NCBI GenBank assembly: GCA_963666515.2 | Contig: OY762897.2 | Span: forward strand, 3,008,001-3,072,000 | Length of the DNA: 64,000 bases | Direction: 5' to 3' | Source: Candidatus Binatia bacterium | GTDB taxonomy: Bacteria > Desulfobacterota > Binatia > UBA9968 > JAJDTQ01 | Part shown: positions 4,684 to 42,315 of the stretch, piece after piece | How the letters are laid out: each line of letters opens with the position of its first letter | Numbering within the stretch: position 1 is the stretch's first letter | Program-made: the position numbers and the translations under genes | The notes under the pieces: generated by a model | What the model saw: only the letters and a program-made list of their open reading frames with translations | Told to the model about the DNA's origin: nothing | Databases searched by the model: none

Positions 4684-5052
4684 TCACCCGCCGCCGGGCG
4701 CGGCGCCGTGCTCCGCGGTCACCACCGTGTGGATGCCACCGCGGACGTTGAAATCGCCCTCGACGCTCATGTACTTGGGCGAGCAGGCCTCCACCAGGTC
4801 GTCCAGGATGCGGTTGACCACGTCTTCGTGAAAGGCGCCCTCCTCACGGTACGACCAGAGGTAGAGCTTGAGAGACAGCAGCTCGACGCACCGCGGCCCG
4901 GGCACGTAACGGACCCGGATGGTGGCGAAGTCCGGCTGTCCGGTCTTGGGACACACGCAGGTGAACTCCGGACACTCCATTGCCACCTCGTAATCGCGAT
5001 CCTGCCGTGGATTGGGTATGGTCTCGATCCGCCTGCTGGGTCGGGTCGGCAC
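4684..5052 (-). CDS. queF: NADPH-dependent 7-cyano-7-deazaguanine reductase (type I QueF)
   Basis: [31 protein letters not shown] motifs; 122 aa. Confidence 0.92.
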
Positions 5053-5173
5053 GGTGCCTGCCTTTCATCCGGGACGCGGCGCCCGGCCCTCCGCCGCGGT
5101 ACGCCCGCGGCCCGCGACGTCCACGCCGAGGGCGCCTTGACTTGACGCCGTGCGGACGCCAGACTGACGCCGC

Positions 5174-5422
5174 ATGAAACTCGACATCCACGTACCATCC
5201 ATCGACGGCGTCGTCAGGGTCGAGATCCGGTCGGTCGAAGAGGACGGCTCCTGGTCGGCCTACCCCGTCCTCATCGGCGGCGCCGCCCTCGATGATGCCT
5301 GTCTCGTGCTGGCGCGGTCGAGCCGGCCGCTCCGTTTCAGCGGCAACACGGCCGAAGCCGCGGAGACCCGGGCCAAGGAATACGTCCAGGCCCACTACCG
5401 GGTCCAACGCATGATCTGGTGA
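5174..5422 (+). CDS. Hypothetical protein (82 aa)
   Basis: ATG start, GC3-rich codon usage, fills the gap between queF and the agmatine deiminase. Confidence 0.6.
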   Translation: MKLDIHVPSIDGVVRVEIRSVEEDGSWSAYPVLIGGAALDDACLVLARSSRPLRFSGNTAEAAETRAKEYVQAHYRVQRMIW

Positions 5423-5442
5423 AATAACACCCGCGCGGCCCT

Positions 5443-6561
5443 TCAAGTCAAGGGCTGCTGCTGGGTGACGCAGTGGATGCCGCCGAGGCCGAGGATAAGC
5501 GTGCGGGCGTCGATGCCGACGACCCGTCGGCCCGGAAACAGGTCTGCCAGCGTGTCCCGTGCGATCCGGTCCTTGGGACCGCCGTAGAACGGCGCCAGCA
5601 CCACCCCGTTGGCGATGTAGAAGTTGGCGTAGCTCGCCGGCAGCCGCGAACCGCCCGCGGTCACCGGGTCGGGCTGCGGTAGCGGCACCACCCGCAGCCA
5701 GCGGCCGCCCGAGTCCCTGGCGGACATGAGACAGCGGTAGTTCTCCTGGAGCGCATGGTAGTTTTCGTCCCGCGTATCCCGCTCCACCACGCACACGACG
5801 GTGCCGGCGTCCACGAAACGCGCAAGGTTGTCCACGTGGCCGTCGGTATCGTCGCCCGCCATGCCCGCAGGGAGCCACAGGACGCGGCGGACCCCCAGGG
5901 CCGATTGCAGCACCCCCTCGATGTCCTCCCGGGTGCGGCTGCTGTTGCGGTTGGGATTGAGCAGGCACTCCTTGGTCACCAAGCAGAGGCCGGCGCCGTT
6001 CACGTCGATGGAGCCTCCCTCCAGCACGATTCCCGGCGTGAACGCCGGCAGGGCCAGGGACTCGTTGATCCGCAGCGGCACGGCGTCGTCGGCCACGTAC
6101 TCGGGGTACTTCATCCCCCAGGCGTTGAAGCGCCAGTTCACCAGCGCCAACGCCTCGGACGGGCCCGCACGGATGATAAAGGTCGGCCCGTAGTCCCGTA
6201 TCCACACGTCGACGGTGGGGATGCGGTGGAACGCCACGCCGCCGGCATCGAGGCCGCCGCGCCGCAGAGCCGCGGCGGCCTCGGCCTCGGAAGCGGCGTC
6301 GTTGACCAGGAGATCGACCCTTTCGCTGCCCGCAAGCGCCCGGATCATCTCCACCCACGTCTGCCGCACCCGCTCCAGGCCGTCCGGCCACGTGTCCGCG
6401 TTGTGCGGCCACGCGAGCCACGTGGCGGCGTGGGGCTCCCATTCCGCGGGCATCCGGTAACCTGCGCCCCGCGGGTCCGCCAGTCGGGCGAACGTGGATC
6501 GCTGGTCTTCGCCGGCCAGGCTTTCCCCGCGACCGCTTACCGCGTCGCCCGCACCCGCCAT
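5443..6561 (-). CDS. aguA: Agmatine deiminase family protein
   Basis: RMPAEWEPH, WIRDYGP, LEGGSIDVNG, DTDGHVD, GGIHCVTQQQP; start trimmed to ATG 6561, just after the upstream gene. Confidence 0.92.
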   Translation of the reverse strand: MAGAGDAVSGRGESLAGEDQRSTFARLADPRGAGYRMPAEWEPHAATWLAWPHNADTWPDGLERVRQTWVEMIRALAGSERVDLLVNDAASEAEAAAALRRGGLDAGGVAFHRIPTVDVWIRDYGPTFIIRAGPSEALALVNWRFNAWGMKYPEYVADDAVPLRINESLALPAFTPGIVLEGGSIDVNGAGLCLVTKECLLNPNRNSSRTREDIEGVLQSALGVRRVLWLPAGMAGDDTDGHVDNLARFVDAGTVVCVVERDTRDENYHALQENYRCLMSARDSGGRWLRVVPLPQPDPVTAGGSRLPASYANFYIANGVVLAPFYGGPKDRIARDTLADLFPGRRVVGIDARTLILGLGGIHCVTQQQPLT

Positions 6562-6566
6562 GCCGC

Positions 6567-7457
6567 TCAATCCGACGGGTCGTCGACGAGGTGGCCGGTG
6601 AGGCCGTCGTAGGCGTCGATGCGCCGGTCCCGCAGGAACGGCCAGTTGTGACGTGCTTCCGCGATGGCCCCGAGGTCGCAGTCCAGCAGCAGGGTCTCGG
6701 GCCTGCTCCTGCCGGCCCGGGCAAGCACCCGGCCCGAAGGATCTGCGGCGAAGGAGTTGCCCCAGAACGTGATCGTCCCCTCGCGGCCCACCCGGTTGAC
6801 CGCGGCCACGTAGACGCCGTTGGTAACGGCGTGGGAGCGCTGCACCAGTTCCCAGGCTTCGAGCTGCGCTTGTCGCGCGGCCCGGGTCTCTCCGGCACCC
6901 CAGCCGATGGCGGTGGGATAGAAGATGATCTCGGCCCCGCCCAGGGCCGCCAGCCGCGCCGCCTCCGGAAACCACTGGTCCCAGCAGATCAGCACCCCCA
7001 CGTGAGCGTAGCGGGTAGGGAAGGTACGGAACCCCAGGTCGCCGGGGGTGAAGTAGAACTTCTCGAAGAAGCCGGGGTCGTCGGGGATGTGCATCTTGCG
7101 GTACCGGCCCGCGATCTCCCCGTCGGCGTCGATGACCAGGGCGGTGTTGTGGTACACGCCGGGGGCGCGGGCCTCGAACACCGAGGCCACGATCACCACC
7201 TCCAGCTCCCGCGCCAGGGGACACAGACGCTCGGTGGTGGGGCCGGGAACGGGTTCCGCCAGGGCGAAGGCTCCCGTGTCCTCGGCCTGCGGGAAATACC
7301 GCGAGCGGAACAGCTCTTGCAGGCAAACGATCCCGGCTCCCGCCTCGGCCGCGAGCCGTATCCGGCGCGCCGCGGCCGCGAGGTTGCGCTCCGGGTCCAG
7401 GGAGGCCCTGGACTGAATGAGCCCCAAGGTCACCGAGTGTTTGGGGGTCGGCGGCAT
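6567..7457 (-). CDS. aguB: Carbon-nitrogen hydrolase, N-carbamoylputrescine amidase-like
   Basis: Catalytic E (CLQELF), K (YRKMHIP) and C (ICWDQWFPE); EKFYFTPGDLGF; adjacent to agmatine deiminase. Confidence 0.85.
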   Translation of the reverse strand: MPPTPKHSVTLGLIQSRASLDPERNLAAAARRIRLAAEAGAGIVCLQELFRSRYFPQAEDTGAFALAEPVPGPTTERLCPLARELEVVIVASVFEARAPGVYHNTALVIDADGEIAGRYRKMHIPDDPGFFEKFYFTPGDLGFRTFPTRYAHVGVLICWDQWFPEAARLAALGGAEIIFYPTAIGWGAGETRAARQAQLEAWELVQRSHAVTNGVYVAAVNRVGREGTITFWGNSFAADPSGRVLARAGRSRPETLLLDCDLGAIAEARHNWPFLRDRRIDAYDGLTGHLVDDPSD

Positions 7458-28618: not shown

Positions 28619-28668
28619 GCAGTGGGTCCGCGAGTCCTGGCTCGTGGGAGCAAAGGGCTTCCATGCTG

Positions 28669-28750
28669 GAATTGGCCCGAATTGGCCCGAATTGGCCCGA
28701 ATTGGCCCGAATGAGCCGGAATTGGCCGGAATGAGCCGGAATTGGCCAGA
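28669..28750 (+). repeat. Tandem array of eight 10-bp units (ATTGGCCCGA consensus)
   Basis: 4x ATTGGCCCGA, then ATGAGCCGGA, ATTGGCCGGA, ATGAGCCGGA, ATTGGCCAGA. Confidence 0.95.
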
Positions 28751-28996
28751 ACTGGGGCCCTATAGTCGCTTCCAGCGAGCACCTCCACCACGACCTGTTG
28801 TTGCTACAAATGGGAGATTTACAGTTGTCAGCAACAGCAACACAAAGGGGAAGGGAGAACAGACGTGGACGGAAACTAAAGAAATACAGCGCAATGCCGA
28901 TAGAAGATTATAGAAGGTGGCGTCCACACTATGGATCACCTTGGCCGGATTACATTAAACCCTGTGGCGAGTATTGACTTCCTGACCCGTAAAGAT

Positions 28997-29009
28997 GACT
29001 ATAAGTAGC
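28997..29009. promoter_or_regulatory. Single C-box upstream of the methyltransferase
   Basis: GACTATAAGTAGC, reverse complement GCTACTTATAGTC, nearly identical to the first operator upstream of the C gene (GCTACTCAGAGTC). Confidence 0.6.
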
Positions 29010-29051
29010 GTCCTGAGGTCCAGTTTCTCAAGTCATAGAGGCGAAACACAC

Positions 29052-30794
29052 ATGGAAGCCCTCCGCGAGACGCGCTTTACCAAACGCTATGGTACCGTCA
29101 CCAAAGAAAAGGCTGGTGGCGCAGTTTACACACCAAGAACGCTGGCCAACTTTGTTTCACAAAAAATCGCGGAAGCGGTGGAGAAACAGGCTACTGGACA
29201 TTTGCTTCGCATCCTCGACCCTGCGATTGGCCATGGAGAGCTTCTTGTCAGTCTTCTTGAGCGTCTTTCTGGACGGCAAAAGTCCAAGATCGAAGTCTAT
29301 GGCTTTGAGACCAACCCCGAAGCTCTCAATATTGCTAGGGAACGACTTGAGCAACAATTCCCCAGCGTCTCCGTTCATTTCGAGTCGGACAACTTTCTTG
29401 AATTTGTTCTCCAACACTTCGGACCTGGCGGTCATGGCAATCTTTTTCGCTCTACCACTCCCGAAACCTATGACTTCATCATTGCGAACCCCCCCTATGT
29501 TCGTACGCAGATCATGGGTGCGAAGCAGACGAAACTACTCTCAGAGAAGTTCGGCCTCTCAGGCCGTATCGACCTCTATTACGCTTTCGTTGTTGGCATC
29601 TCTCAAGTACTCAAGCCACAGGGCATCGCCGGAATCATCGTTTCCAACCGTTTCATGACGACCAAGTCCGGCGCGCCCATCCGGCAGGCTCTCCTTGATC
29701 GATTCAATATCTGGCATGCTTGGGACTTGGGCGATACCAAGCTGTTCGAGGCTGCCGTCCTACCTGCTGTCTTGGTCGTTCAGGGAAAAAACGGTCACAA
29801 GCTGGAAACCCCGGCGTTCACGTCCATCTACCAAACCAGGGAACCCGCAACCGTGTCCGCCACTGACCCGATAACCGCCCTCAACGAAGAAGGCGTCGTC
29901 AAGATTGACGACGGACGGCACTTCCACGTCCAGCACGGGAGACTAGACACGAACGGTAGGTCGGATGGTGTTTGGCGCATTGCCACCGAAGCCGGTGACA
30001 CTTGGCTGAAGACCGTAGAAGCGCATAGCTGGGGGACCTTCCGCGATATCGGAAAGATCCGCGTTGGCGTCAAAACCTGCGCAGACAAGATATTCATTCG
30101 TAGAGACTGGCAGGACATGGCCGAGACTGATCGGCCGGAGCTTATCAGACCGCTCACCACTCACCATGTGGCCCGACGATTCAAACCCCTGTCCTCGGAA
30201 CGGCCAAGTCACATTCTCTATCCACACGAGGTCGTAGGAGGCCGGCGCCGCGCTGTTGACCTAGCCCGCTACCCTCGCAGCCAAGCCTATCTCACGGCGC
30301 ATCGACCGGTTCTGGAACGTCGCAAGTACGTCATCGAGGCGGGCCGCCAGTGGTATGAAATTTGGGTCCCGCAAGACCCGAGGGCTTGGGATCAACCCAA
30401 GCTCGTGTTCCGCGATATTGTAGATGAGCCGACGTTCTGGATCGACCTGGATGGTTCCGTTGTGAACGGGGACTGCTATTGGCTTGTCGCCCATAACTCC
30501 GCCAATATAGACCTCCTTTGGCTCGCAGCCGCCACCGCTAACTCCACATTCATTGAGCGCTTTTATGATCTCCGCTTCCACAATAAGCTTTATGCAGGCC
30601 GTCGGCGGTTCATCACGCAGTACGTCGAGAACTTCCCCCTTCCCGATCCACACAGCTCCCTCAGCAAGTCCATCGTTTCCAAGGCGAAGCGGATACACAC
30701 GCTTACGCCTTCCCCACGTGCTGAGCTGCTTCAGCAAGAGCTGAACGCCATGGTCTGGGAAGCTTTTACCGGCTATAGCCTCCCGTCAAGCTAG
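29052..30794 (+). CDS. Type II N6-adenine DNA methyltransferase, gamma class, M.BseCI/BanIII (ClaI-type)-like
   Basis: ILDPAIGHG, IANPPYVRTQ, DLY, DLGDTKLFEAAVLP, WYEIWVP, NKLYAGRRRF; 580 aa; similarity to M.BseCI is from recall. Confidence 0.9.
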   Translation: MEALRETRFTKRYGTVTKEKAGGAVYTPRTLANFVSQKIAEAVEKQATGHLLRILDPAIGHGELLVSLLERLSGRQKSKIEVYGFETNPEALNIARERLEQQFPSVSVHFESDNFLEFVLQHFGPGGHGNLFRSTTPETYDFIIANPPYVRTQIMGAKQTKLLSEKFGLSGRIDLYYAFVVGISQVLKPQGIAGIIVSNRFMTTKSGAPIRQALLDRFNIWHAWDLGDTKLFEAAVLPAVLVVQGKNGHKLETPAFTSIYQTREPATVSATDPITALNEEGVVKIDDGRHFHVQHGRLDTNGRSDGVWRIATEAGDTWLKTVEAHSWGTFRDIGKIRVGVKTCADKIFIRRDWQDMAETDRPELIRPLTTHHVARRFKPLSSERPSHILYPHEVVGGRRRAVDLARYPRSQAYLTAHRPVLERRKYVIEAGRQWYEIWVPQDPRAWDQPKLVFRDIVDEPTFWIDLDGSVVNGDCYWLVAHNSANIDLLWLAAATANSTFIERFYDLRFHNKLYAGRRRFITQYVENFPLPDPHSSLSKSIVSKAKRIHTLTPSPRAELLQQELNAMVWEAFTGYSLPSS

Positions 30795-30810
30795 AGGGTT
30801 CCTGCCGTCT

Positions 30811-31860
30811 TCAGTCGAAGAAGTCGCGGGGCAAGGGTATCTGAAGTTTCCTGTTCAGTACCTTGCCTTGAAATTGCGGGAACCGTGTAAAGAACCTCTC
30901 GCCGGTGGTGAGGAACAGATGCGTCAAAGTCACGCGCTTCCCGTCTGTCTCAGCGTAGAACAGTGCATAGCGGACATCGCAATGCCGTATTTGTCTGCCT
31001 TCGATCCTCGGGACGTCCAATGCTTCCTCACTATTCGGACGCACTAAGCCCAGATCAATAGTCGGCGACGTTTGCAGCTTCACTTCCAACAGTTGGTGCC
31101 GAACGTCTGGAAATTGGCCATCATCCCGGCAGTCCGTGTATCCCAAGTGTTGGCACACGAGCCTGTGCAACAACGCGCCTCGATTGCGTTCTTGGTCGTA
31201 CCCGATGTCTGCGAATGATTCGCCGACAAGAGGTTGAAGGCGATCGAAAATCTCCACGATCGACAGCAATTGTGCTGTCCGCGGAGCGTCCACCGGGCTC
31301 ACCCCGACCGCTAGGTCGGCAGCCGTCCCTACAGACGCACGGAGTGTCTCCGTGTCCTCATCAGTAACCAACTCGGCATTTGCTCCACCCGGAATCAGGC
31401 GGGCTTGATATTTCTGGGTCAGAGTACCTGTCGAGTCCAGCAACGCCAGTGTGTTGCCCGTGACCACCTTAATCTTGGTAATCACGTCTTCCCTCCCAAC
31501 CCGGATAATCGCGTAGCGCCGCGTCGGTTCTAGTTCTTCATTCCAGACCTGGAGGTTGTTCGACTTCTGCACAAAGGTGTCGAAGAATTGACCCGGAAAG
31601 CGCGGCTGCGTTCTCTTGAAGCTACGCGGCACCGGGTAGCCAAGCGACCGACAAACATGTTCCTTGACCACTTTCGAGCGGGTTCGTAGCGGAAGTCCGG
31701 CGAGTGAAACGCCGGACATGGCAGCGTTGAGTAGCTTCTCTAACTCCAGCGTCGGAATCCAAAGCTCCGGATCACCGATCTCGATACGGTCATAGATCGA
31801 CAATCCCTTCCGACGGATTGCCTCAACGTATCGCTCGGGGCCACTACCGTCAGCGGTCAT
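30811..31860 (-). CDS. Type II restriction endonuclease
   Basis: PD-(D/E)xK motif QFPDVRHQLLEVKLQTSPT; convergent with the MTase and overlapping the C gene. Confidence 0.82.
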   Translation of the reverse strand: MTADGSGPERYVEAIRRKGLSIYDRIEIGDPELWIPTLELEKLLNAAMSGVSLAGLPLRTRSKVVKEHVCRSLGYPVPRSFKRTQPRFPGQFFDTFVQKSNNLQVWNEELEPTRRYAIIRVGREDVITKIKVVTGNTLALLDSTGTLTQKYQARLIPGGANAELVTDEDTETLRASVGTAADLAVGVSPVDAPRTAQLLSIVEIFDRLQPLVGESFADIGYDQERNRGALLHRLVCQHLGYTDCRDDGQFPDVRHQLLEVKLQTSPTIDLGLVRPNSEEALDVPRIEGRQIRHCDVRYALFYAETDGKRVTLTHLFLTTGERFFTRFPQFQGKVLNRKLQIPLPRDFFD

Positions 31861-32107
31861 CCTCAAAGGCCCTTTTGGTCAGGAGCTCCGGGACACTCAC
31901 ACCCAGTGCAGCGGCCAAAGTTTCTAGCGTCTTGAGCGTCACGTTACGCTCACCCCTCTCCACCGACCCCACGTATGTCCGGTGCAGATTGCATATGCCA
32001 GCGAGTTCTTCCTGAGAAATCTGTTTCGTCCTTCTGTAGGCACGGATGTTGTCAGCAAGAATCCGGGTCAACTGTCGGCTGGGTTTGTTCAGCTGCTCGT
32101 CGGCCAT
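31850..32107 (-). CDS. R-M controller (C) protein, XRE HTH
   Basis: SQEELAGICNLHRTYVGSVERGERNVTL signature; directly upstream of the REase. Confidence 0.9.
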   Translation of the reverse strand: MADEQLNKPSRQLTRILADNIRAYRRTKQISQEELAGICNLHRTYVGSVERGERNVTLKTLETLAAALGVSVPELLTKRAFEDDR

Positions 32108-32300: not shown

Positions 32301-32605
32301 ATTCCTTGCGGCCGGTGCCATGCGCTGGTGACGGTGCTGAGCTACTCGCGATGTTGTGGCTGCGCTTCTACCGCCGGCAGACGATGGCGGTGCTGATAGA
32401 AGGGCTGGAGAGCGCCTTCGAGTGGTTCGGCGGGATACCGCAGGAACTGTTGTTCAATCAGATGCGGACGATGGTGCTGTCGGAGGGCCGCGTGGGCGGG
32501 GCGAGTTGGTGCTGAACGCGGACTTCCTGCGGTTCGCCGCCGACTGGGGGTTCCAGCCGCCAGGGGTGCCGGCCGTACCTTGCCCGGACCAAGGGCAAGG
32601 TGGAG
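32301..32605 (+). pseudogene. IS21-family transposase (IstA) remnant
   Basis: Frameshifted core: VLSYSR / LWLRFYRRQTM...AFEWFGGIPQELLFNQM / FLRFAADWGF / CRPYLARTKGKVE. Confidence 0.82.
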
Positions 32606-32708
32606 TTCAACAGCACCGCGCCCGCCTAGTTGGCGTTCCGGACTGCTCGGAGAACCACAGTCCCTCGACCGCTCACCTATGGGCAGTTCCATGTAGAGAA
32701 GTCATAGC

Positions 32709-33833
32709 TCAGGAAAACCTCTCCCGAAAAACAAATCGACTTGGAAGACGCGTCGCCAGGGTTGCACTTGCAACCTCGAATCCATGCCGACGCAGTCGCG
32801 TAAACTCCACTTGCGTTAGGCGCCGCAGAGTGGTGGGGAAGGTGGCGGCCTTCTTCGTTTCCTCCGCACTCAGATGGTCTCCCGATGGCGCGGTACGTTC
32901 GACCGCTGAATAGATTTGCTCGACCGTATTCCCCATCCTGAGGTATACCCCTGTGTCCACCGCGCGCACGAGCTCCGCAACAACCGCCCTTGAACGAAGA
33001 CCCCGGATCTGGTCCGTGGCGATATCGATCAGCCTATGTACGCGGTGCCCTGGCTTCTTCATGCGCCTGAGCGTGCGAGGAGAGAACTCCAACGGAGCCG
33101 AGGCGTCGCTCACGACCACCATGTCGAACCCATCACGGAACCCGCCGCTCGGCTTGAACAGGGGCTCTATCCCCAAGTTGTCGTAAACACCCCCATCCCA
33201 AAGCTCATACCGCTTGGCCGGCGTTGTTGTCGGCACCAACTCCCCACCTTCGTACCGATGCCACGCATAACGGCTCGATCGAACCACTAAGGGTCCAATC
33301 AGTCCCGGAACCGCGGCCGACGCTGCGATCGCATCTGTGATCGCCACATCGGGATTCCGGACGTAGCCGGTAAGGTAGTCACCCATACGCGACTGACCGA
33401 AGCGCCAGTTCTTGCCCGTTTCGTAGCAGGTTGCGTTGATAATCCACCGGGGCGTGGCCGGGAGTTGCTGCAACGATCCTTCAATCCCCCATTGCGCTTC
33501 CAACTGCTTGGCCAGGATCCGCGCTCGCCCGCGTGCCAAGCGCCACGGCAGCGCAAGCGACCGCCACACGTACGACCACTGCAAAGTCGTCGTAGTCAGA
33601 CGCTCGGTCACCTGAGGTAAGACTGTGTCGAGGAACTCTTTGCTACCTGGCCATCGATGACCATTGCGGCAAAGTATCAAACCCGTGACAAGACTCCCGC
33701 CAGATACAGTCGACACGAATGTTGTCTGCTCCAATAGTCCATCCAAGGCCAAGCGCTGCAAGACGCCGCAGTGGAAGACCGCGGCGCGCACACCACCTCC
33801 AGAGAGGGCAAGGGCGAGCCTCATCGATTCCAT
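32709..33833 (-). CDS. Patatin-like phospholipase
   Basis: LSGGGVRA, nucleophile STVSGGS, ASAAVPG, DGGVYDNLG; start overlaps the JAB gene end. Confidence 0.9.
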   Translation of the reverse strand: MESMRLALALSGGGVRAAVFHCGVLQRLALDGLLEQTTFVSTVSGGSLVTGLILCRNGHRWPGSKEFLDTVLPQVTERLTTTTLQWSYVWRSLALPWRLARGRARILAKQLEAQWGIEGSLQQLPATPRWIINATCYETGKNWRFGQSRMGDYLTGYVRNPDVAITDAIAASAAVPGLIGPLVVRSSRYAWHRYEGGELVPTTTPAKRYELWDGGVYDNLGIEPLFKPSGGFRDGFDMVVVSDASAPLEFSPRTLRRMKKPGHRVHRLIDIATDQIRGLRSRAVVAELVRAVDTGVYLRMGNTVEQIYSAVERTAPSGDHLSAEETKKAATFPTTLRRLTQVEFTRLRRHGFEVASATLATRLPSRFVFRERFS

Positions 33834-35344
33834 GCCGCTCGCGTGTAGAACGCGAAATTCCGGTCCGCGCCGACGATCATCACTACCCCGGGCCAGCCGT
33901 CGACACGCACTTCGTTCGCGACCGTTTGAAGCAGTTCTTCATCGTCGCTGCTCATGGCAACACCCGCGTTGTCTGGATGGGAGTGCCACTCGCCGACATA
34001 ACCCACCTGGCCTCCCGTCCGACCTTCGATGGCATCGAGCTGTTTGCGAAGATCCGCATACCCCCGGATAAACGCATCGCGGTGCTCCTCGCTGTCGGCC
34101 GGCGCCGGCAAGACATCCACCAAGTACACGTGGCGGTTCAGAACATCAAAGTAGCCAATCAGTACACCGCCCGTCTCCCTCGGCAGCTTCCCCCGTCGCA
34201 GGGAGACCACGCGGTCGAGGAGACCGCGGTCCAACACGAAGACCCAGCCGTCACATTCCCGACGAATGACTTCAAAAAGGGGAACTTCAACCCGCTGGAC
34301 TGTACCGTCCTGCTCCTGCTGCCAGATCGCGCCCATGGCCGCGTCGTGAGCAGTGCGAACCTGTCGCGCCAGCAGGGCACTCGCAAGGGCCACGTCGTCT
34401 TGGCCGATCCGCGCCGTTACGTCCCTGCAGCCGACGCTGTACCGGACATATCCCTCGCGCCTGATATGCCCTTCGAGCCGGGGATCAGTGAGGACCGCCC
34501 GATAGTATTGGGCCTCAAGCGTATCCAGAGTCCACGACCTCTCGGCATCCTCCATCAGCATGACCGCATCACGGCCGTCGGGACTCAAGAACAGGGTCGT
34601 GCGTCGAGCCGTAACGTCCAGCGTCCGGCCGAGAAAGCGCGCAGCCGCAATGGAGGTCGACACGTCGAGAATCAGGTCCGCATCACGGAAAGTCGAAAGC
34701 ATCCTCTCGTTGCCCTCGACCGACAACACGTCCTCGGCGAAAGCGTGCTCCACGGGATTGTGGGGGGTCGCAAAGCGGCTATAGCGTTCTAACGCAGGTG
34801 CCTTCAGTTGACCGACTGCAAACTCACCGAGACGGTGCCGCACAACGTTGTGTGGTGAGAGAGTGTCTTCATCGACAATTGTCCAATGTCCCCACCCCAT
34901 TCGCGATAAGTGGTCGTGCAACTGGGAGCCAAGCGCGCCTGCGCCGACCAACACAACCTTCGGATCGGCTAGGCCCGGTTCCATTCCGCTGAAGTATTTC
35001 GCGGCCCCGCGGTCGAGGGCTCGTTCCGGGCGCAGGACATCGACGGGCACTGCACGAGCCCGTTCCGGATCGAACTGCGACCCCAAGAGCCAGCCCAATT
35101 GCTCGTGGGGACCAGAGGAAGCAAAGCCACCTGTGGCAATTGCAGCATCTCGGATCGACTGCATGGCGAACGCGCAATACTGCACCTGCTCGATCGGACC
35201 GCGCGACTGGCGCTTCCGAGGTAACTTCGCCAAAACAATGAGACCATCCCCATCCCGTGGAACACGCTCCCCGTCGTACAGTCGCTTCAGTTCTTCCACC
35301 AGCACATCCACGAGGGCAATCCCAGCGTGAGCCAAGAGGCCCAC
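33821..35344 (-). CDS. ThiF/E1-like adenylation domain + JAB/Mov34 isopeptidase (3' part of an E2-E1-JAB gene)
   Basis: VGAGALGS, DEDTLSPHNVVRH, candidate catalytic Cys YSVGC; JAB ETGGVLIG...GEWHSHP...SSDD. Confidence 0.87.
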   Translation of the reverse strand: MGLLAHAGIALVDVLVEELKRLYDGERVPRDGDGLIVLAKLPRKRQSRGPIEQVQYCAFAMQSIRDAAIATGGFASSGPHEQLGWLLGSQFDPERARAVPVDVLRPERALDRGAAKYFSGMEPGLADPKVVLVGAGALGSQLHDHLSRMGWGHWTIVDEDTLSPHNVVRHRLGEFAVGQLKAPALERYSRFATPHNPVEHAFAEDVLSVEGNERMLSTFRDADLILDVSTSIAAARFLGRTLDVTARRTTLFLSPDGRDAVMLMEDAERSWTLDTLEAQYYRAVLTDPRLEGHIRREGYVRYSVGCRDVTARIGQDDVALASALLARQVRTAHDAAMGAIWQQEQDGTVQRVEVPLFEVIRRECDGWVFVLDRGLLDRVVSLRRGKLPRETGGVLIGYFDVLNRHVYLVDVLPAPADSEEHRDAFIRGYADLRKQLDAIEGRTGGQVGYVGEWHSHPDNAGVAMSSDDEELLQTVANEVRVDGWPGVVMIVGADRNFAFYTRAAWNR

Positions 35345-35359
35345 TAGGTCCTTCAGGTT

Positions 35360-36055
35360 CTACGGACTGTCGTGTATCGCACCGTGTACAGTCGGCTGGC
35401 CCACCACCACCACCACATACATACGGTTCGCTTCCGATGGTTGGTTCTCGTCGGCGGCCTCCAGTTTAAACGTAACGGGTCTGTCTGGCCGTTCAGCGAC
35501 GCCGGTCGCCACGTATAGCCTTGGCGGCGAGTCCTCGGCGAACACGGCCTCCGGAAAGACCACAACGTCCAGACCGCTCAGGAGAAAGGGTTCCAGGGGC
35601 TGGTCAGCGCCGTGCAACTCCCCGACAGCCGTGCGCGAGAGCCACTGTGCAATGTCGCGGAGAAATCCAGCGCCGCTCCAACGAAGGCGAACCTCGGCCC
35701 ACGGGTCTTCGTAGAGGCACAGCCACCTGGGTTCCCCCGTAGGAGTGCTGTACAAGTGCGGCACATGCGGAAAATCGATCCGAAGCGCGAGGACCCTAGG
35801 GCAACGTCGGTCGCCACGCTCGAAACCGAGCGCCAACCGCTCTTGCGAGCGGATATCGTGGACAAGGTCTTGAGGAAGCTCCGGTGCGATTTCGACCACG
35901 AGAACCTCTTCGTACCGATCCCCCGACGCCCACTGCCTTGTTTCGATCAAGCGGGTGCACGGACTCCAAGCCAACGCTTCGCGCACTTCCTGAGCACGGT
36001 CCAGCACAAGTGCCTCCGGTTCCATTGAATCACCGGGGGCTGGGAACCAAGTCAT
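35360..36055 (-). CDS. Prokaryotic E2-like domain (5' part of an E2-E1-JAB gene, ends at in-frame TAG)
   Basis: P-x-V-x-ALR-x-DFPHVPHL...LCLY; same frame as the downstream E1-JAB ORF (DSP*NLKDLVGLL). Confidence 0.8.
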   Translation of the reverse strand: MTWFPAPGDSMEPEALVLDRAQEVREALAWSPCTRLIETRQWASGDRYEEVLVVEIAPELPQDLVHDIRSQERLALGFERGDRRCPRVLALRIDFPHVPHLYSTPTGEPRWLCLYEDPWAEVRLRWSGAGFLRDIAQWLSRTAVGELHGADQPLEPFLLSGLDVVVFPEAVFAEDSPPRLYVATGVAERPDRPVTFKLEAADENQPSEANRMYVVVVVGQPTVHGAIHDSP

Positions 36056-37170
36056 CTCCTGCTGCCAGCCCTGGGGGCGCGGCTACTCGTTACGGCCGAC
36101 ACCCCCACCGCTCCAGCCTGCATGAGAGTCACGCCACGGGCACCGACACTGATTTCGAGAACTTTCGGCCGTTGCGTGCTGAGGTGTTCCATCGTCACCG
36201 CGAATTTCCGGCCCTGATTGTCCACAATAGCCTTCCTGTACGTCGCTGCGGCCTGCCGGTGGGGCGGGTCGTTCGTGTCTTCTCTGGGAATGGGATCCGA
36301 CGAGGACACTGCAATACCGCCCTGCTGGCACTGATTGAGCAGCCACTTCACGTTCGCCACCGGCTTGGTGTAGTCCTTGCCTTTCTCGGGGCCGAGGGCA
36401 AGGTAACTACAGTGGTGCGGCACGTTGTAGAGGTCCCACCGCAGTCGAATGTCGCGGCTCCGGGCACGCGTGATATCAACAATCTCCTCAAGAATCTCCC
36501 ACGAGGAATCGCCCACCATCAGGTACCGCGTCTTGCGACCCGAGACGTCGAAGGTTGCGTGCAGGATGAGGGCGCTCTCGTTCCGTAGCACGGTGCCGCC
36601 GTCGGCGTGCTTCGCGAAGGGCGAATGCACGAAGAACTCGACACCATCACGCTCGCAAGTAAACCCGGGAACGAGCCGGCCCGCATCGGTGATCAAATGA
36701 CGTCGCTGCTCCAACGAAAGACCTTCGGACTCGAGCCAGTCGGCGAGCTTCGACGGTTTCGAGAAGACACGGATTCCCTTGCCCTCCTTGAGTCGGTGCC
36801 GTGCCTCGCTGCGCCACACGGCCGCTTCGCCGGTAAGGCCCTTCTCGAGGATGGCTGCAGCGGGTACCCACAGTTCCCCGATCCGCTTCCGCCACGCGCT
36901 CTGGTACTTCTTCGCGTGTTCCAAGAAGAAAAACTCGGTGCTGTTCGCGATGTGGTCATCGTCGAGGTGCGTGAGCGCGACGACATCGAATCCAGTCCGC
37001 TTCGCGGCTGTGAGCTCATCGCTGAGCGCCTTATGAAGGTCGATCCGCGGATCGTCCTTGTCTTCGGCCTTGCGCCGGTGGCAGTAGTCGAAGAGAAGCC
37101 GCTTCTGGTTCGCCAAAATGATCTGGCTACAGTCGCCGTTTCCAACGGGATAGAACTTGACCTTGACCAT
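36052..37170 (-). CDS. Metallo-beta-lactamase-fold (ComEC-like) hydrolase
   Basis: FYPVGNGD, LFD, THLDDDH, NESA, GD, PHHCS; C-terminus ...APRAGSRR; ATGA overlap with E2. Confidence 0.87.
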   Translation of the reverse strand: MVKVKFYPVGNGDCSQIILANQKRLLFDYCHRRKAEDKDDPRIDLHKALSDELTAAKRTGFDVVALTHLDDDHIANSTEFFFLEHAKKYQSAWRKRIGELWVPAAAILEKGLTGEAAVWRSEARHRLKEGKGIRVFSKPSKLADWLESEGLSLEQRRHLITDAGRLVPGFTCERDGVEFFVHSPFAKHADGGTVLRNESALILHATFDVSGRKTRYLMVGDSSWEILEEIVDITRARSRDIRLRWDLYNVPHHCSYLALGPEKGKDYTKPVANVKWLLNQCQQGGIAVSSSDPIPREDTNDPPHRQAAATYRKAIVDNQGRKFAVTMEHLSTQRPKVLEISVGARGVTLMQAGAVGVSAVTSSRAPRAGSRR

Positions 37171-37244
37171 AGTTTTCAATCCTCCGTTCCGAGTGTTTCA
37201 CTGCGTGCCAGTCTTGACCGACACCGCCGAACCTGACAAACTGC

Positions 37245-37288
37245 GTCTCACTTCTGAAACATAACGCAGGCTGTTTCATATGTCAAAC
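37245..37288 (-). promoter_or_regulatory. Sigma70 promoter of the MBL operon overlapped by two palindromic operators
   Basis: Minus strand TTGACA-17-TATGTT; dyads GTCTCA-N4-TGAAAC (37245-37260) and GTTTCA-N4-TCAAAC (37273-37288). Confidence 0.65.
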
Positions 37289-37316
37289 ACTTCGAATCAC
37301 CGAGGGAGGATCGCCC

Positions 37317-37658
37317 ATGCGGACATCAAATTCGCTCGAATCGCTCGGCTCGCTGGTCTCGGAGAAGCGCGGGAAGGTCGGCGTGAGAGCAACGGCAGCC
37401 GCGATCGGGATCTCGCCGGCCACGCTGTCCCGGGTGGAGAACGGACACCTTCCGGACCTCGCCAATTTTCAGAAGATTTGCCAGTGGCTGCAGATTGATC
37501 CTGCGACCGTCCTGAATGTCGACACCGAATCAATGAACCGACCATTGGTCGCGGTCCACTTCCGCGGATCCAGCACAATGGCCCCTGCGACCAGTTCCGC
37601 ACTCGCGGAGATGATCCAGGCCGCTCACGATGCGCTGATCGCACAAGAAGCCAAGTGA
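37317..37658 (+). CDS. XRE HTH repressor, CapH-like
   Basis: GVRATAAAIGISPATLSRVENG HTH; C-terminal VHFR followed by a helix; GGAGG RBS. Confidence 0.85.
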   Translation: MRTSNSLESLGSLVSEKRGKVGVRATAAAIGISPATLSRVENGHLPDLANFQKICQWLQIDPATVLNVDTESMNRPLVAVHFRGSSTMAPATSSALAEMIQAAHDALIAQEAK

Positions 37659-37662
37659 TTCA

Positions 37663-38244
37663 ATGCGGCGCGGTTTCAAGTCATGGTGCGAAAACACCGC
37701 TGCCGAGTATAGGTTGCACTTGGGGCTGAGCGGAGACGCCCCGCTTGATCCTCGTGCCCTTGCTGACTACCTCGGGGTCCAGGTCTGGACGCCACGCGAC
37801 GTAACCGGACTCTCGGACGAGAGCATCAAGCAGCTGACGGAAATCGATCCCAGTAGCTGGTCCGCCGTGACGATCGCCTCGAACGGCCAATACCTCGTGA
37901 TCCTCAACTCCGCGCATGCACGTACCCGGCAGCAAAGCAGCCTTGCGCACGAACTCGCCCACCTCATATTGAACCATCGTCCCGCTCGTACCACCGTCTC
38001 TGACGAGGGGTACTTATTCAGTGACCGCTATGACGCGGAGCAGGAAGAGGAGGCCAACTGGCTCGCTGGTGCGCTACTGCTGCCGAGGGAAGGGTTGTTA
38101 GACGTCTATCGACGAACGCGGTCATCAGCGGTGATCGCGAAGGAATTTGGGGTCAGCACCAAGCTGGTCGACTGGCGCCTGCGCATGACGGGCATTCTCA
38201 TGCAGGTTAAACGCGGCGCTCAGTGGCGCCGGCGTACTGGTTGA
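37663..38244 (+). CDS. ImmA/IrrE family Zn metallopeptidase, CapP-like
   Basis: LAHELAH (HExxH), EEEANWLAGALLLP, C-terminal HTH-like FGVS. Confidence 0.88.
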   Translation: MRRGFKSWCENTAAEYRLHLGLSGDAPLDPRALADYLGVQVWTPRDVTGLSDESIKQLTEIDPSSWSAVTIASNGQYLVILNSAHARTRQQSSLAHELAHLILNHRPARTTVSDEGYLFSDRYDAEQEEEANWLAGALLLPREGLLDVYRRTRSSAVIAKEFGVSTKLVDWRLRMTGILMQVKRGAQWRRRTG

Positions 38245-38536
38245 ACATACAGCCCCCGCCTTGCCATCCGTGGTAGTCCAGGATATCGACGTCATCCGCT
38301 CGGCGATACCGCCATTCCTGGTGCCCCCGGCGGATGGCATCCCGGCACGCATCGCTTATCCTCGCTTCGAATTGTCCCCAGGCCAGGACAAAGTATGCTT
38401 GTTCGTTGAGCCTCTGTTGGCGTGCGACGCTGTCGCGATCCTCGGTCTCACTGGCAGCATCGTACCGGTCGCGTAAGCCTTCAAGATAGTTGTCGACCTG
38501 TTGGTACAGGGCTGCGATGGCACCGAGGTCGCTCAT
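38207..38536 (-). pseudogene. Probably truncated helical (HEPN-like) protein
   Basis: ATGA-coupled to the upstream gene; AYFVLAWGQFEARI helix; the 3' end runs into the CapP-like gene and no RxxxxH motif remains. Confidence 0.4.
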
Positions 38537-38970
38537 CGAAGGACGCGCCTCAACCAGTCTTCGGTGACCGCCTCCCGGTCGCATCGCCGTTCGGCAGGAG
38601 CCACCTGCCAATCCGGCGCTTCGAAATTCTCCGACATGTCGACGATGAGGTAGCGCCGACCGTCCCGCTTCAGATCGATACGGCCATTGCCGCCGATGAT
38701 CCATAGCCCACGCGGCTCCAGTCTGGCCGCGTCGTCTCCCTGCCCAAGCAGCATGAGCGTCGGAATCTCTATTCGTTCAACGCCGAACTTCCGCATGAGC
38801 TCTTCTTGCATGAGTATGGGCTCACCCTCGCAGGTTCGCCAACCGTCCGGCAACCAGCCGCCGATCGTGGCGTAGAGGTCTTTCACGCGCCTCGCCCAGT
38901 CATCCACGCGTCGCTTGATGTGCTCCGCGTCAATTGTTTCGCTTGTAACGTCTTCGAGAACCGTCCCCAT
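38533..38970 (-). CDS. Hypothetical protein (145 aa)
   Basis: Clean ORF with purine-rich RBS; LEPRGLWIIGGNGRIDL. Confidence 0.7.
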   Translation of the reverse strand: MGTVLEDVTSETIDAEHIKRRVDDWARRVKDLYATIGGWLPDGWRTCEGEPILMQEELMRKFGVERIEIPTLMLLGQGDDAARLEPRGLWIIGGNGRIDLKRDGRRYLIVDMSENFEAPDWQVAPAERRCDREAVTEDWLRRVLR

Positions 38971-40704: not shown

Positions 40705-40737
40705 CGCGGCCCTGGCCTCATGGAGTCACCAGGGCGC

Positions 40738-41697
40738 CTATCCGCTCTGCCCCGGCTCCTGGTTGCCGCGCCTCGCGGTGTGGCCCAGCACCGTGGTGGC
40801 GGCGCCGATCATGGAGGTGAGGTCGCTCAGGTTGGCGGGGACGATGAGGGTGTTGCCTTCCTTGGCGAGGTTGCCGAAGCGCTCCAGGTAGTTCTCGGCG
40901 ACGCGAAGCTGCATGGCCTTGTCACCGCCTTCCGAGTCCAGCGCCTCCGCCACCTTCTTGAGCCCTTCGGCGGTCGCTCCGGCCACCGCGAGAATGGCCG
41001 CGGCCTCGCCTTCGGCCTCGTTGATCTGCCGCTGCTTGGCGGCCTCCGAAGCCTTGATGACCTGCTGCTTCTCGCCTTCGGCCTCGTTGATCTTGGCGTC
41101 GCGTTCGCCCTCGGACGACAGCACGGTGGCGCGCTTCTCCCGCTCCGCCCGCATCTGTTTCTCCATGGCCGACAACACGTCCGACGGCGGATTGATGTTC
41201 TTGATCTCGTAGCGCAGCACCTTGACGCCCCACGGATCGGACGCCTTGTCCAACTCCTCGACGACGCTCTGGTTGATGTGGCCTCGCTCCTCGAAGGTCC
41301 GGTCCAGCTCGATCTTGCCGATCTCGCTGCGCAGCGTGGTCTGGGCGAGCTGGGAGATGGCGAACACGTAGTTGCCGATGCCGTAGGACGCCCTTTCCGG
41401 GTCCACCACCTGGAGGTAAAGCACGCCGTCCACCCCCACCTGGACGTTGTCCGAGGTGATGCAGACCTGTTCCTCGATGTCCATGGCGTGCTCCTTGAGG
41501 CTGTGCCGGTAGGCCACCCGCTCCAGGAACGGCACCAGGATGTTGAATCCCGGCTTGAGCGTGCGCGAGTACTTGCCGAGGTTCTCGATGACGTAGGCGT
41601 TCTGCTGAGGCACCACCACTGCGGTCTTGATGAGAACGATGAGCACGACGAGGGCGATGACGCCCGCGGTGATCAGGAAACCCAGATTCGCATCCAT
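40738..41697 (-). CDS. SPFH/stomatin-like protein (QmcA-like)
   Basis: CITSDNV, QLAQTTLRSEIG, WGVKVLRYEIK, MEKQMRAEREKRA. Confidence 0.94.
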   Translation of the reverse strand: MDANLGFLITAGVIALVVLIVLIKTAVVVPQQNAYVIENLGKYSRTLKPGFNILVPFLERVAYRHSLKEHAMDIEEQVCITSDNVQVGVDGVLYLQVVDPERASYGIGNYVFAISQLAQTTLRSEIGKIELDRTFEERGHINQSVVEELDKASDPWGVKVLRYEIKNINPPSDVLSAMEKQMRAEREKRATVLSSEGERDAKINEAEGEKQQVIKASEAAKQRQINEAEGEAAAILAVAGATAEGLKKVAEALDSEGGDKAMQLRVAENYLERFGNLAKEGNTLIVPANLSDLTSMIGAATTVLGHTARRGNQEPGQSG

Positions 41698-42165
41698 TTA
41701 CTTGCCCCTTTCGGATTCGTTCACGATGTCGTCCGCCAAGCCCTCAATGGAAAGGTTCACGCTGTCCCGTCCCACCACCCGCGCACGGGCGCCCGCGGTG
41801 ATCGGCGCCGTGCCCACGTTGACCGCGGTCCATTGCGTCCCTTGCAGGATGACCCGGGTCTCTCCGCCGCGCGGCACGTCTTCACCGACCGATACGATCC
41901 GTCCGGCCACCTTGTACTCGAAACCCGGGAGCCCGCCGCGAATCCGGTCGTAGAGCCTCCCCCGGAACAGCACCATGGACGCGACCGCGAGAACCGCGAA
42001 GGCCAACAATTGACCCCACACGGGCAGCTCCACTCCAGCCAGCCCGATGATCCCCACGCAGACCGCGGCGGCGCCGACGAAGATAAGATAGAACGCGGCG
42101 TCGACCGCGGTCAGCTCCAGCCCCATCAAGATGATACCGATGCTCACCCAACCCCACCAAGGCAT
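41698..42165 (-). CDS. NfeD family membrane protein
   Basis: N-terminal TM helices and C-terminal OB-like GTQWTA; paired with SPFH. Confidence 0.88.
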   Translation of the reverse strand: MPWWGWVSIGIILMGLELTAVDAAFYLIFVGAAAVCVGIIGLAGVELPVWGQLLAFAVLAVASMVLFRGRLYDRIRGGLPGFEYKVAGRIVSVGEDVPRGGETRVILQGTQWTAVNVGTAPITAGARARVVGRDSVNLSIEGLADDIVNESERGK

Positions 42166-42315
42166 GCCCCTGCTCCTTCAACTTTGGACCGCCGGCTTCC
42201 TCACCGGTTGCTTCAATGACCCGCCATGACGGTTTCCGCCGGTATTGGTTTACCCGGCCGGTACGAGTATGCTGAATTACACGGGCTGGATCAATCCCGC
42301 CAAGGAGGTGCCGCC

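Follow-up and report, generated by a model that had tools for sequence, protein, structure and literature searches.

Within the 64,000-nucleotide (nt) stretch of Candidatus Binatia bacterium contig OY762897.2 analysed here (hereafter the window), an operon on the minus strand encodes a metallo-beta-lactamase (MBL)-fold protein, an E2-E1-JAB protein (cap2_3) and a patatin-like phospholipase, and is divergent from a gene pair for a helix-turn-helix (HTH) protein and a zinc peptidase. On its profile matches and gene order, this locus is a copy of the named 6A-MBL anti-phage system, which is operon type 6a of Iyer et al. (2006) and '6A_MBL' in DefenseFinder. The reading that we favour as a whole, and consider probable, is that of a horizontally acquired 6A-MBL copy with a CapH/CapP-type switch and a patatin in its effector slot, most likely disabled by an in-frame TAG, in a family that would act by the mechanism proposed below. 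Through this locus, a named defence family gains a member that is CapH/CapP-regulated, carries a patatin and is naturally interrupted. The comparative results are maybe more useful than the locus itself, offering testable handles on how 6A-MBL works, namely an almost universal P-R-A-G tail whose short extensions could be removed, a third-gene slot that is taken mostly by patatin or membrane proteins and swapped freely among close relatives, and a fusion of E2-E1-JAB with patatin.

Identification of the 6A-MBL operon

The MBL-fold protein (36052-37170, minus strand, 372 amino acids (aa)) scored 387.4 bits against the NCBIfam equivalog NF058524.1 ('6A-MBL_enzyme, anti-phage 6A-MBL system MBL-fold protein'), for which the cutoff is 220. 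The two pieces of cap2_3 in the window matched abutting ranges of NF058523.1 ('6A-MBL_cap2_3'), with 130 bits over positions 1-175 and 430 bits over 185-665, and the intact orthologue from the nearest orthologous locus (L001), whose cap2_3 is 92% identical to the window copy, reached 583 bits against a cutoff of 320. The PADLOC E1-E2 and JAB models also matched the window proteins; the Cap3 equivalog gave 30.7 bits versus a cutoff of 200, and the intact E2-E1-JAB of L001 matched Cap2 7to3 at an E value of 1.9e-08. The MBL gene lies directly upstream of cap2_3, in the same operon order as in relatives, and an MBL gene followed by a single E2-E1-JAB open reading frame (ORF) of 739-758 aa was found in 11/11 complete genome loci. 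The window departs from the usual 6A-MBL arrangement in that a TAG interrupts its cap2_3 behind the E2 domain, and goes beyond the 6A-MBL core in carrying CapH/CapP and a patatin gene. The original prediction of a translationally coupled minus-strand operon of MBL, E2, E1/ThiF, JAB and patatin was confirmed in order, strands and domains by Pfam, NCBIfam and PADLOC, and its coupling is seen in overlaps of 4 nt between MBL and E2 and 13 nt between E1-JAB and patatin.

For comparison we assembled 92 starting loci: 12 from genomes and, out of 456 metagenome matches, the best 80. Once duplicates had been removed, together with loci in which the ligase gene ran off the contig end, 61 distinct loci with a complete E2-E1-JAB were left. 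The 12 genome loci come from Thermodesulfobacteriota, Pseudomonadota, Bacteroidota, Balneolota, Chloroflexota, Abditibacteriota and Binatota. Scoring of 8000 candidates showed the MBL family to be large (at least 4420 clusters at E<=1e-5), and its members, where the source names them, are called 'hypothetical protein'.

Van den Berg 2024 is reportedly where 6A-MBL became a named defence system. [quoted passage not shown] Lau (2022) lists a 6a system of Methylobacterium oxalidis together with its CapP-like and CapH-like genes, and the excerpts of Ye et al. [quoted passage not shown] According to a review (PMC13276650), van den Berg (2024) predicted and experimentally confirmed antiphage activity of several Pseudomonas aeruginosa components including 6A-MBL; that review and 10.1101/2025.09.30.679545 cite the system as validated or as a known defence against jumbo phages, and '6A_MBL' is given as a putative defence system of an Asgard archaeal genome in PMC13700489. 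The architecture, the defence role, the kinship with type II CBASS and the association with CapH/CapP are all already in print. The original prediction had described MBL and E2/E1/JAB operons as noted in comparative work and little characterised; the operons were not unnamed, being already known as 6a or 6A-MBL. In the literature examined the mechanism is asserted by analogy to type II CBASS rather than shown. Our search found no paper linking patatin to the 6A-MBL operon or describing the MBL tail, and its coverage was incomplete and is not proof of being unpublished. The tail statistics, the third-gene census and the E2-E1-JAB-patatin fusion reported here are not in the literature examined, and may exist in papers or supplements beyond it.

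An in-frame TAG splits cap2_3

In the window, cap2_3 is read as two ORFs. The E2 part (35360-36055 including the stop, codons 35363-36055, minus strand, 231 aa) matched Prok-E2_A in Pfam (3.5e-19) and has the conserved His100 and Cys113. The E1 (ThiF)-JAB part (33821-35344, minus strand, 507 aa) matched ThiF (4.2e-13) and Prok-JAB (3.6e-10) and carries, in read-through numbering, GxGxxG at 371-376, Cys543 and the JAB residues H691-S-H693 ... D705. Both parts are in the same frame and are parted by a single TAG at 35360-35362 (minus strand), codon 232 of cap2_3, where L001 has CAG. Earlier, E2 and E1-JAB had been taken for separate genes; the domains were correctly called, and the separateness was not, these being two halves of one TAG-split gene. 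An alignment of distinct sequences showed cap2_3 to be uninterrupted in 56/56 other full-length homologues.

An assembly error is ruled out by three agreeing Logan assemblies. Contigs from runs X1-X3 (three samples from one study, dated 2023 to 2025) match 34800-35900 without a single difference at depths of 26, 14 and 43, and the TAG is present in the population. An alternative genetic code was also rejected, given that the other genes of the operon and the window end normally under table 11 and that the orthologue has CAG. Moreover, the window copy keeps 63/63 columns that are conserved in at least 93% of homologues, including the E2, E1 and JAB catalytic residues, and the ratio of non-synonymous to synonymous substitution rates (dN/dS) versus L001 is 0.10-0.25 in all six genes. 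Therefore, the TAG is either recent or tolerated. Judging from the sequence, the system is probably disabled in the window's genome by the CAG-to-TAG change, and the inactivation would most likely be recent, as nothing else has decayed.

Toleration would mean that E2 (231 aa) and E1-JAB are made separately, associate and work as split enzymes, as in Bil systems, which we regard as unlikely. A possible restart codon, GTG at 35344, lies five codons past the stop with AAGGA upstream, but just 4 nt separate AAGGA from GTG. The stop falls at a variable linker position just after the conserved Pro231, at which homologues have 16 different residues, and the allele, which occurs in runs from 2023 to 2025, retains the patatin motifs as well as the 63/63 conserved columns. 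One other locus (L073, 8140-10399) is split into 266 aa and 491 aa near a comparable E2/E1 boundary. However, the 56 other full-length homologues are all fused, only 2 of the 61 distinct loci are split (L073, and L042 at 4916-7224), and both of these are single metagenome contigs with the ORFs in different frames, possibly through frameshift errors.

The MBL protein and its C-terminal tail

The MBL gene starts at an ATG at 37170 that is preceded by GGAGGA. Its product had no match in Pfam. The AlphaFold2 (AF2) model is an MBL fold with a mean predicted local distance difference test (pLDDT) value of 85, in which residues 352-372 fall below 50, as in a disordered tail. Its metal motif, H68-x-D70-x-D72-H73, consists of residues that are invariant or nearly so in the homologue alignment.

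Among 116 full-length homologues (4 short sequences were skipped), 114 carry [RK][AVSG]G within 14 residues of the C-terminus and 30 end exactly at the Gly. The 84 distinct locus copies have the motif in 83 cases and P-R-A-G in 71; 45 of them end at the Gly and 38 have 1-6 unconserved residues after it. In the window the motif is P366-R367-A368-G369 (codons at 36064-36075, minus strand), followed by S-R-R and then the stop. From these sequences, the MBL tail resembles a ubiquitin-like C-terminus that is sometimes made as a precursor. It is also like the disordered, Gly-ending tail of the CBASS cyclase, for which a preprint (Ledvina 2022) describes a C-terminal region that is disordered and a glycine at the C-terminus.

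Complex prediction of E1-JAB with MBL gave a median of 0.48 versus 0.02 for the best control. The mark used is reached by 58/80 solved complexes and 2/110 mismatched pairs, and at <=0.60 it is reached by only 7 of the 80 solved complexes and by both mismatches. Agreement between the runs covers at least 4% of contacts, the pLDDT of the partner is 84 or more, and the model may remember solved Cap2 complexes. This prediction weakly favours a pairing of E1-JAB with MBL.

The best Foldseek match of the MBL model was the MBL domain of ComEC (PDB 9ic4, 5.7e-14), with a profile match at 1e-4. The two share the G-x-G-D and H-x-D-x-D-H motifs; in contrast to ComEC 9ic4, to which it is about 18% identical, the 6A-MBL protein is soluble and stand-alone, with about 100 extra residues and a conjugation-type tail. 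Its N-terminal half also matched the PADLOC models LmuA (1.8e-13), RTasMBL (9.2e-10) and Avs1a (3e-06), which represent MBL-type components of other defence systems. These likenesses fit a possible alternative to a signalling role, which we entertain tentatively: the MBL may itself be the killer, a ComEC-like DNase or RNase gated by conjugation, to which patatin and membrane proteins would be dispensable additions or independent neighbours, not acting downstream of a signal made by the MBL. Two-gene operons do exist (Iyer et al. 2006, and 3/58 of the loci below), and NCBIfam defines two components only.

The third-gene slot

The patatin-like phospholipase (32709-33833, minus strand, 374 aa) is the candidate effector of the window's operon. 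It matched PF01734 at 1.4e-19 and has the motifs S11-G-G-G-x-R16, V43-S44-G-G and D213-G-G, whose residues are invariant in alignments of 33 and 20 sequences. Its AF2 model has a pLDDT of 89, and the best Foldseek matches include PlpD, AbCapV and CapE at template-modelling (TM) scores of about 0.5-0.55.

Three of the 61 loci had too little downstream DNA, leaving 58 in which the third gene could be evaluated. Conservation of patatin beside homologous operons, the lack of which the original prediction had named as refuting it, was seen in 36/58 loci. Patatin follows directly on the operon's strand in 29, is fused to E2-E1-JAB in one, is convergent in 4 and lies upstream in 2. An ORF with at least two hydrophobic 19-mers, as in a multi-pass membrane protein, takes the slot in 11 loci and another kind of gene in 8 (a metallophosphatase and second MBL genes among them), and the slot is empty in 3. 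The patatin arrangement also occurs on Gluconobacter oxydans pGOX1, from a species that is in Iyer et al. (2006), and on a Sphaerotilus plasmid, both with genes for a hypothetical protein (the MBL), a ThiF/MPN protein and a patatin-like phospholipase.

The fusion (L083, 2450-5947) is a single ORF of 1165 aa in which Pfam recognises Prok-E2_A, ThiF, Prok-JAB and Patatin. It is known from one metagenome contig, in which a sequencing error is possible.

Most of the membrane ORFs belong to two families, one of about 166-192 aa and the other of about 230-280 aa. The two families, whose small proteins have 3-4 hydrophobic segments and stand where patatin would be, were noted in L006, L016, L055, L061 and L075, and in L010, L018, L032 and L048. 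Seven membrane proteins were searched against Pfam: those of L018, L048 and L061 had no match at E 0.01, and those of L006, L016, L055 and L075 had weak matches only, below the curated cutoffs. In NCBIfam release 20 no model matched the window patatin or the membrane proteins of L006 and L018. Mapped onto a tree of 57 MBL proteins, the third gene switches type 19 times versus a shuffled mean of 19.6. Therefore, the slot is swapped freely, like the effector genes of CBASS.

The third genes stand against the notion that the MBL kills by itself. About four fifths of the evaluable loci (36 with patatin and 11 with membrane ORFs, of 58) have a membrane-directed third gene, patatin is fused to E2-E1-JAB in one locus, and the operon genes overlap. 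Moreover, the cyclase appears to be replaced one-for-one with CBASS-like effector classes kept, which suggests a sensor or signal role for the MBL.

A second, different gene of the MBL superfamily was observed directly after the operon in L066 (10446-11543), L090 (8394-9818) and L092 (10440-11993), convergent in two of them.

The divergent regulators

Opposite the operon lie a CapH-like XRE-family HTH repressor gene (37317-37658, plus strand, 113 aa), whose product matched HTH_3 in Pfam at 3.6e-07, and, after a gap of 4 nt, a CapP-like M78/IrrE zinc peptidase gene (37663-38244, plus strand, 193 aa), whose product matched Peptidase_M78 (5.4e-21) and PADLOC capP (1.2e-11) and has a HELAH (HExxH) motif. 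These matches bear out the divergent XRE HTH and IrrE pair seen at first. As in CapH/CapP, and in DdrO/IrrE, the XRE HTH gene adjoins that of an M78 HExxH peptidase and the pair is divergent from the regulated operon. In contrast to CapH/CapP, the HTH protein matches HTH_3 only modestly, and cleavage, activation by single-stranded DNA and operator binding are here putative.

The 146-nt divergent intergenic region (37171-37316), a candidate promoter/operator, contains TGTTTCA/TGAAACA half-sites and imperfect palindromes, with inverted repeats I1-I5. The stretch 37160-37330, which spans this spacer, is 96% identical to L001 versus 90-95% for the coding regions. From their sequence, the palindromes are a candidate operator.

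Among the 59 distinct loci in which 1300 nt or more of upstream DNA was available, a seed-based census found M78 in 19 (10 of them with a recognisable HTH partner), WYL in 5 and neither in 35. In two gammaproteobacterial genomes (L002, 3433-6043, and L003, 3280-6036) a second gene set on the same strand lies directly upstream of the 6A-MBL operon, coding for a ThiF protein (339 aa in L003), a JAB-like protein of 312-313 aa and a short MBL-like protein of 277-283 aa.

Relation to CBASS and a proposed mechanism

Type II CBASS combines a CD-NTase (the nucleotidyltransferase or cyclase) with Cap2, Cap3 and an effector, for instance CapV. The window's system is like it in having a Cap2-homologous E2-E1 ligase, a JAB peptidase and a patatin-fold effector, and 6A-MBL shares with it CapH/CapP or WYL regulators and a partner enzyme whose disordered tail ends in Gly. 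It differs in that Pfam and PADLOC scans of islet ORFs turned up neither a CD-NTase nor a beta-grasp protein, as the original prediction had it, an MBL-fold hydrolase being in place of the nucleotidyltransferase. In 6A-MBL, moreover, JAB is fused to E2-E1, and the MBL tails often have a short extension after the Gly (38/84 distinct locus copies), again unlike type II CBASS. The proposal of an anti-phage system in which the MBL replaces the cyclase gains support from the NCBIfam names, from PMC11601596, from the P-R-A-G tail and from the recurrence of patatin, while the conjugation and the role of the patatin are what we infer.

In intact relatives, the HTH repressor would sit on the half-sites of the spacer, and the M78 peptidase would cleave it after DNA damage, so that the operon is expressed. 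JAB would then trim the residues that follow the conserved Gly of the MBL, which here would be the S-R-R after P-R-A-G369. E1 would adenylate the Gly and pass the MBL to the E1 Cys543 and then to the E2 Cys113, from which it would be attached to a target. By analogy to what Cap2 does for the type II CBASS cyclase, conjugation may prime the MBL protein, and JAB may also reverse the link. The MBL would be a ComEC-like metal-dependent phosphodiesterase that either attacks nucleic acid itself or makes a cue for the third gene, and the product of the latter (here patatin, elsewhere small multi-pass membrane proteins) may damage the membrane and abort the infection.

A sharper version of this scheme, which we put forward as no more certain than a tentative suggestion, is that 6A-MBL is a three-part, CBASS-like but cyclase-free signalling system, in which a ComEC-like MBL phosphodiesterase, made as a pro-protein, trimmed by JAB so that the Gly of P-R-A-G is bared, and primed by Cap2_3 conjugation, provides a cue that switches on an interchangeable membrane effector. 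The cue could be a hydrolysis product or the conjugate itself, and the effector would be patatin or either of the two membrane-protein families. If this were true, a hydrolase would be the signal generator of an abortive-infection pathway.

Several points tell against our overall reading of an acquired, switch-controlled and disabled 6A-MBL copy with a patatin effector. The metagenome loci, as the best 80 of 456, are skewed toward relatives of the window MBL. The three Logan runs are from a single study and may include the window's source, and the intact sequence downstream of the TAG fits a tolerated split equally well as a recent inactivation. The complex prediction provides weak support, with uneven runs (0.51, 0.48 and 0.16). 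The window patatin matched no PADLOC model at E 0.01, and its likeness to CapV in the structural models is at the level of the general fold only (TM about 0.55). Patatin may also be an accessory rather than the effector, because NCBIfam models two components, Iyer et al. (2006) wrote of 'usually two genes', and 3/58 loci have no third gene and 8/58 another one. None of the literature examined was seen to contain an experiment that addresses MBL conjugation, the MBL substrate or patatin activation.

Genomic setting

The operon and its regulators lie in an islet of lower GC content (0.53-0.62 across about 28.5-38.5 kb versus 0.65-0.70 in the flanks), and the flanks contain metabolic genes. The operon is single-copy in the window's own genome and was not found in 30 relatives of that genome, 18 of them of the same genus. 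Horizontal acquisition of the locus belongs to the reading that we consider probable. A search for flanking direct repeats marking an integration site gave short pairs at chance level only, and there is no tRNA gene in the window.

A type II restriction-modification (R-M) system (28995-32107) is the neighbour of the operon and stands outside it as context. It comprises a methyltransferase (MTase; 28995-30794, plus strand; PADLOC MTase_II, 3.7e-189), a restriction endonuclease (REase; 30811-31866, minus strand; PADLOC REase_II, 5.6e-144) and a small HTH ORF of 85 aa (31850-32107, minus strand; HTH_3, 1e-13) whose 3′ end overlaps the REase start. The protein of this last ORF resembles, in sequence, the controller (C) protein of an R-M system. 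These PADLOC matches and the GC values agree with the earlier description of an adjacent R-M system in a lower-GC islet. Defence genes also adjoin 6A-MBL operons elsewhere, with BrxL in L007, a type I R-M system in L098, and WYL regulators.

Such neighbours bear on whether the locus serves phage defence in this organism. It might be a stress-induced or plasmid-competition module that lies beside the R-M system by chance: homologues are found on 123 plasmids, 93 of which are conjugative or mobilizable, and CapH/CapP respond to DNA damage in general, according to Lau (2022). We consider this very improbable, as NCBIfam names the family anti-phage, the system is cited as validated, and defence genes adjoin the other loci named above.

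Two further ORFs, at 32342-32692 and 38207-38704, were rejected as parts of the system, since Pfam, PADLOC and NCBIfam gave no match for them and none of the 12 genome loci has a counterpart. To the right of the islet, amid metabolic genes, an ORF of 499 aa (40720-42219, plus strand) has no Pfam match. At the left edge of the islet, immediately upstream of the MTase gene, a 10-nt unit (GAATTGGCCC, with variants) is repeated in tandem about 10 times, at 28659-28758.

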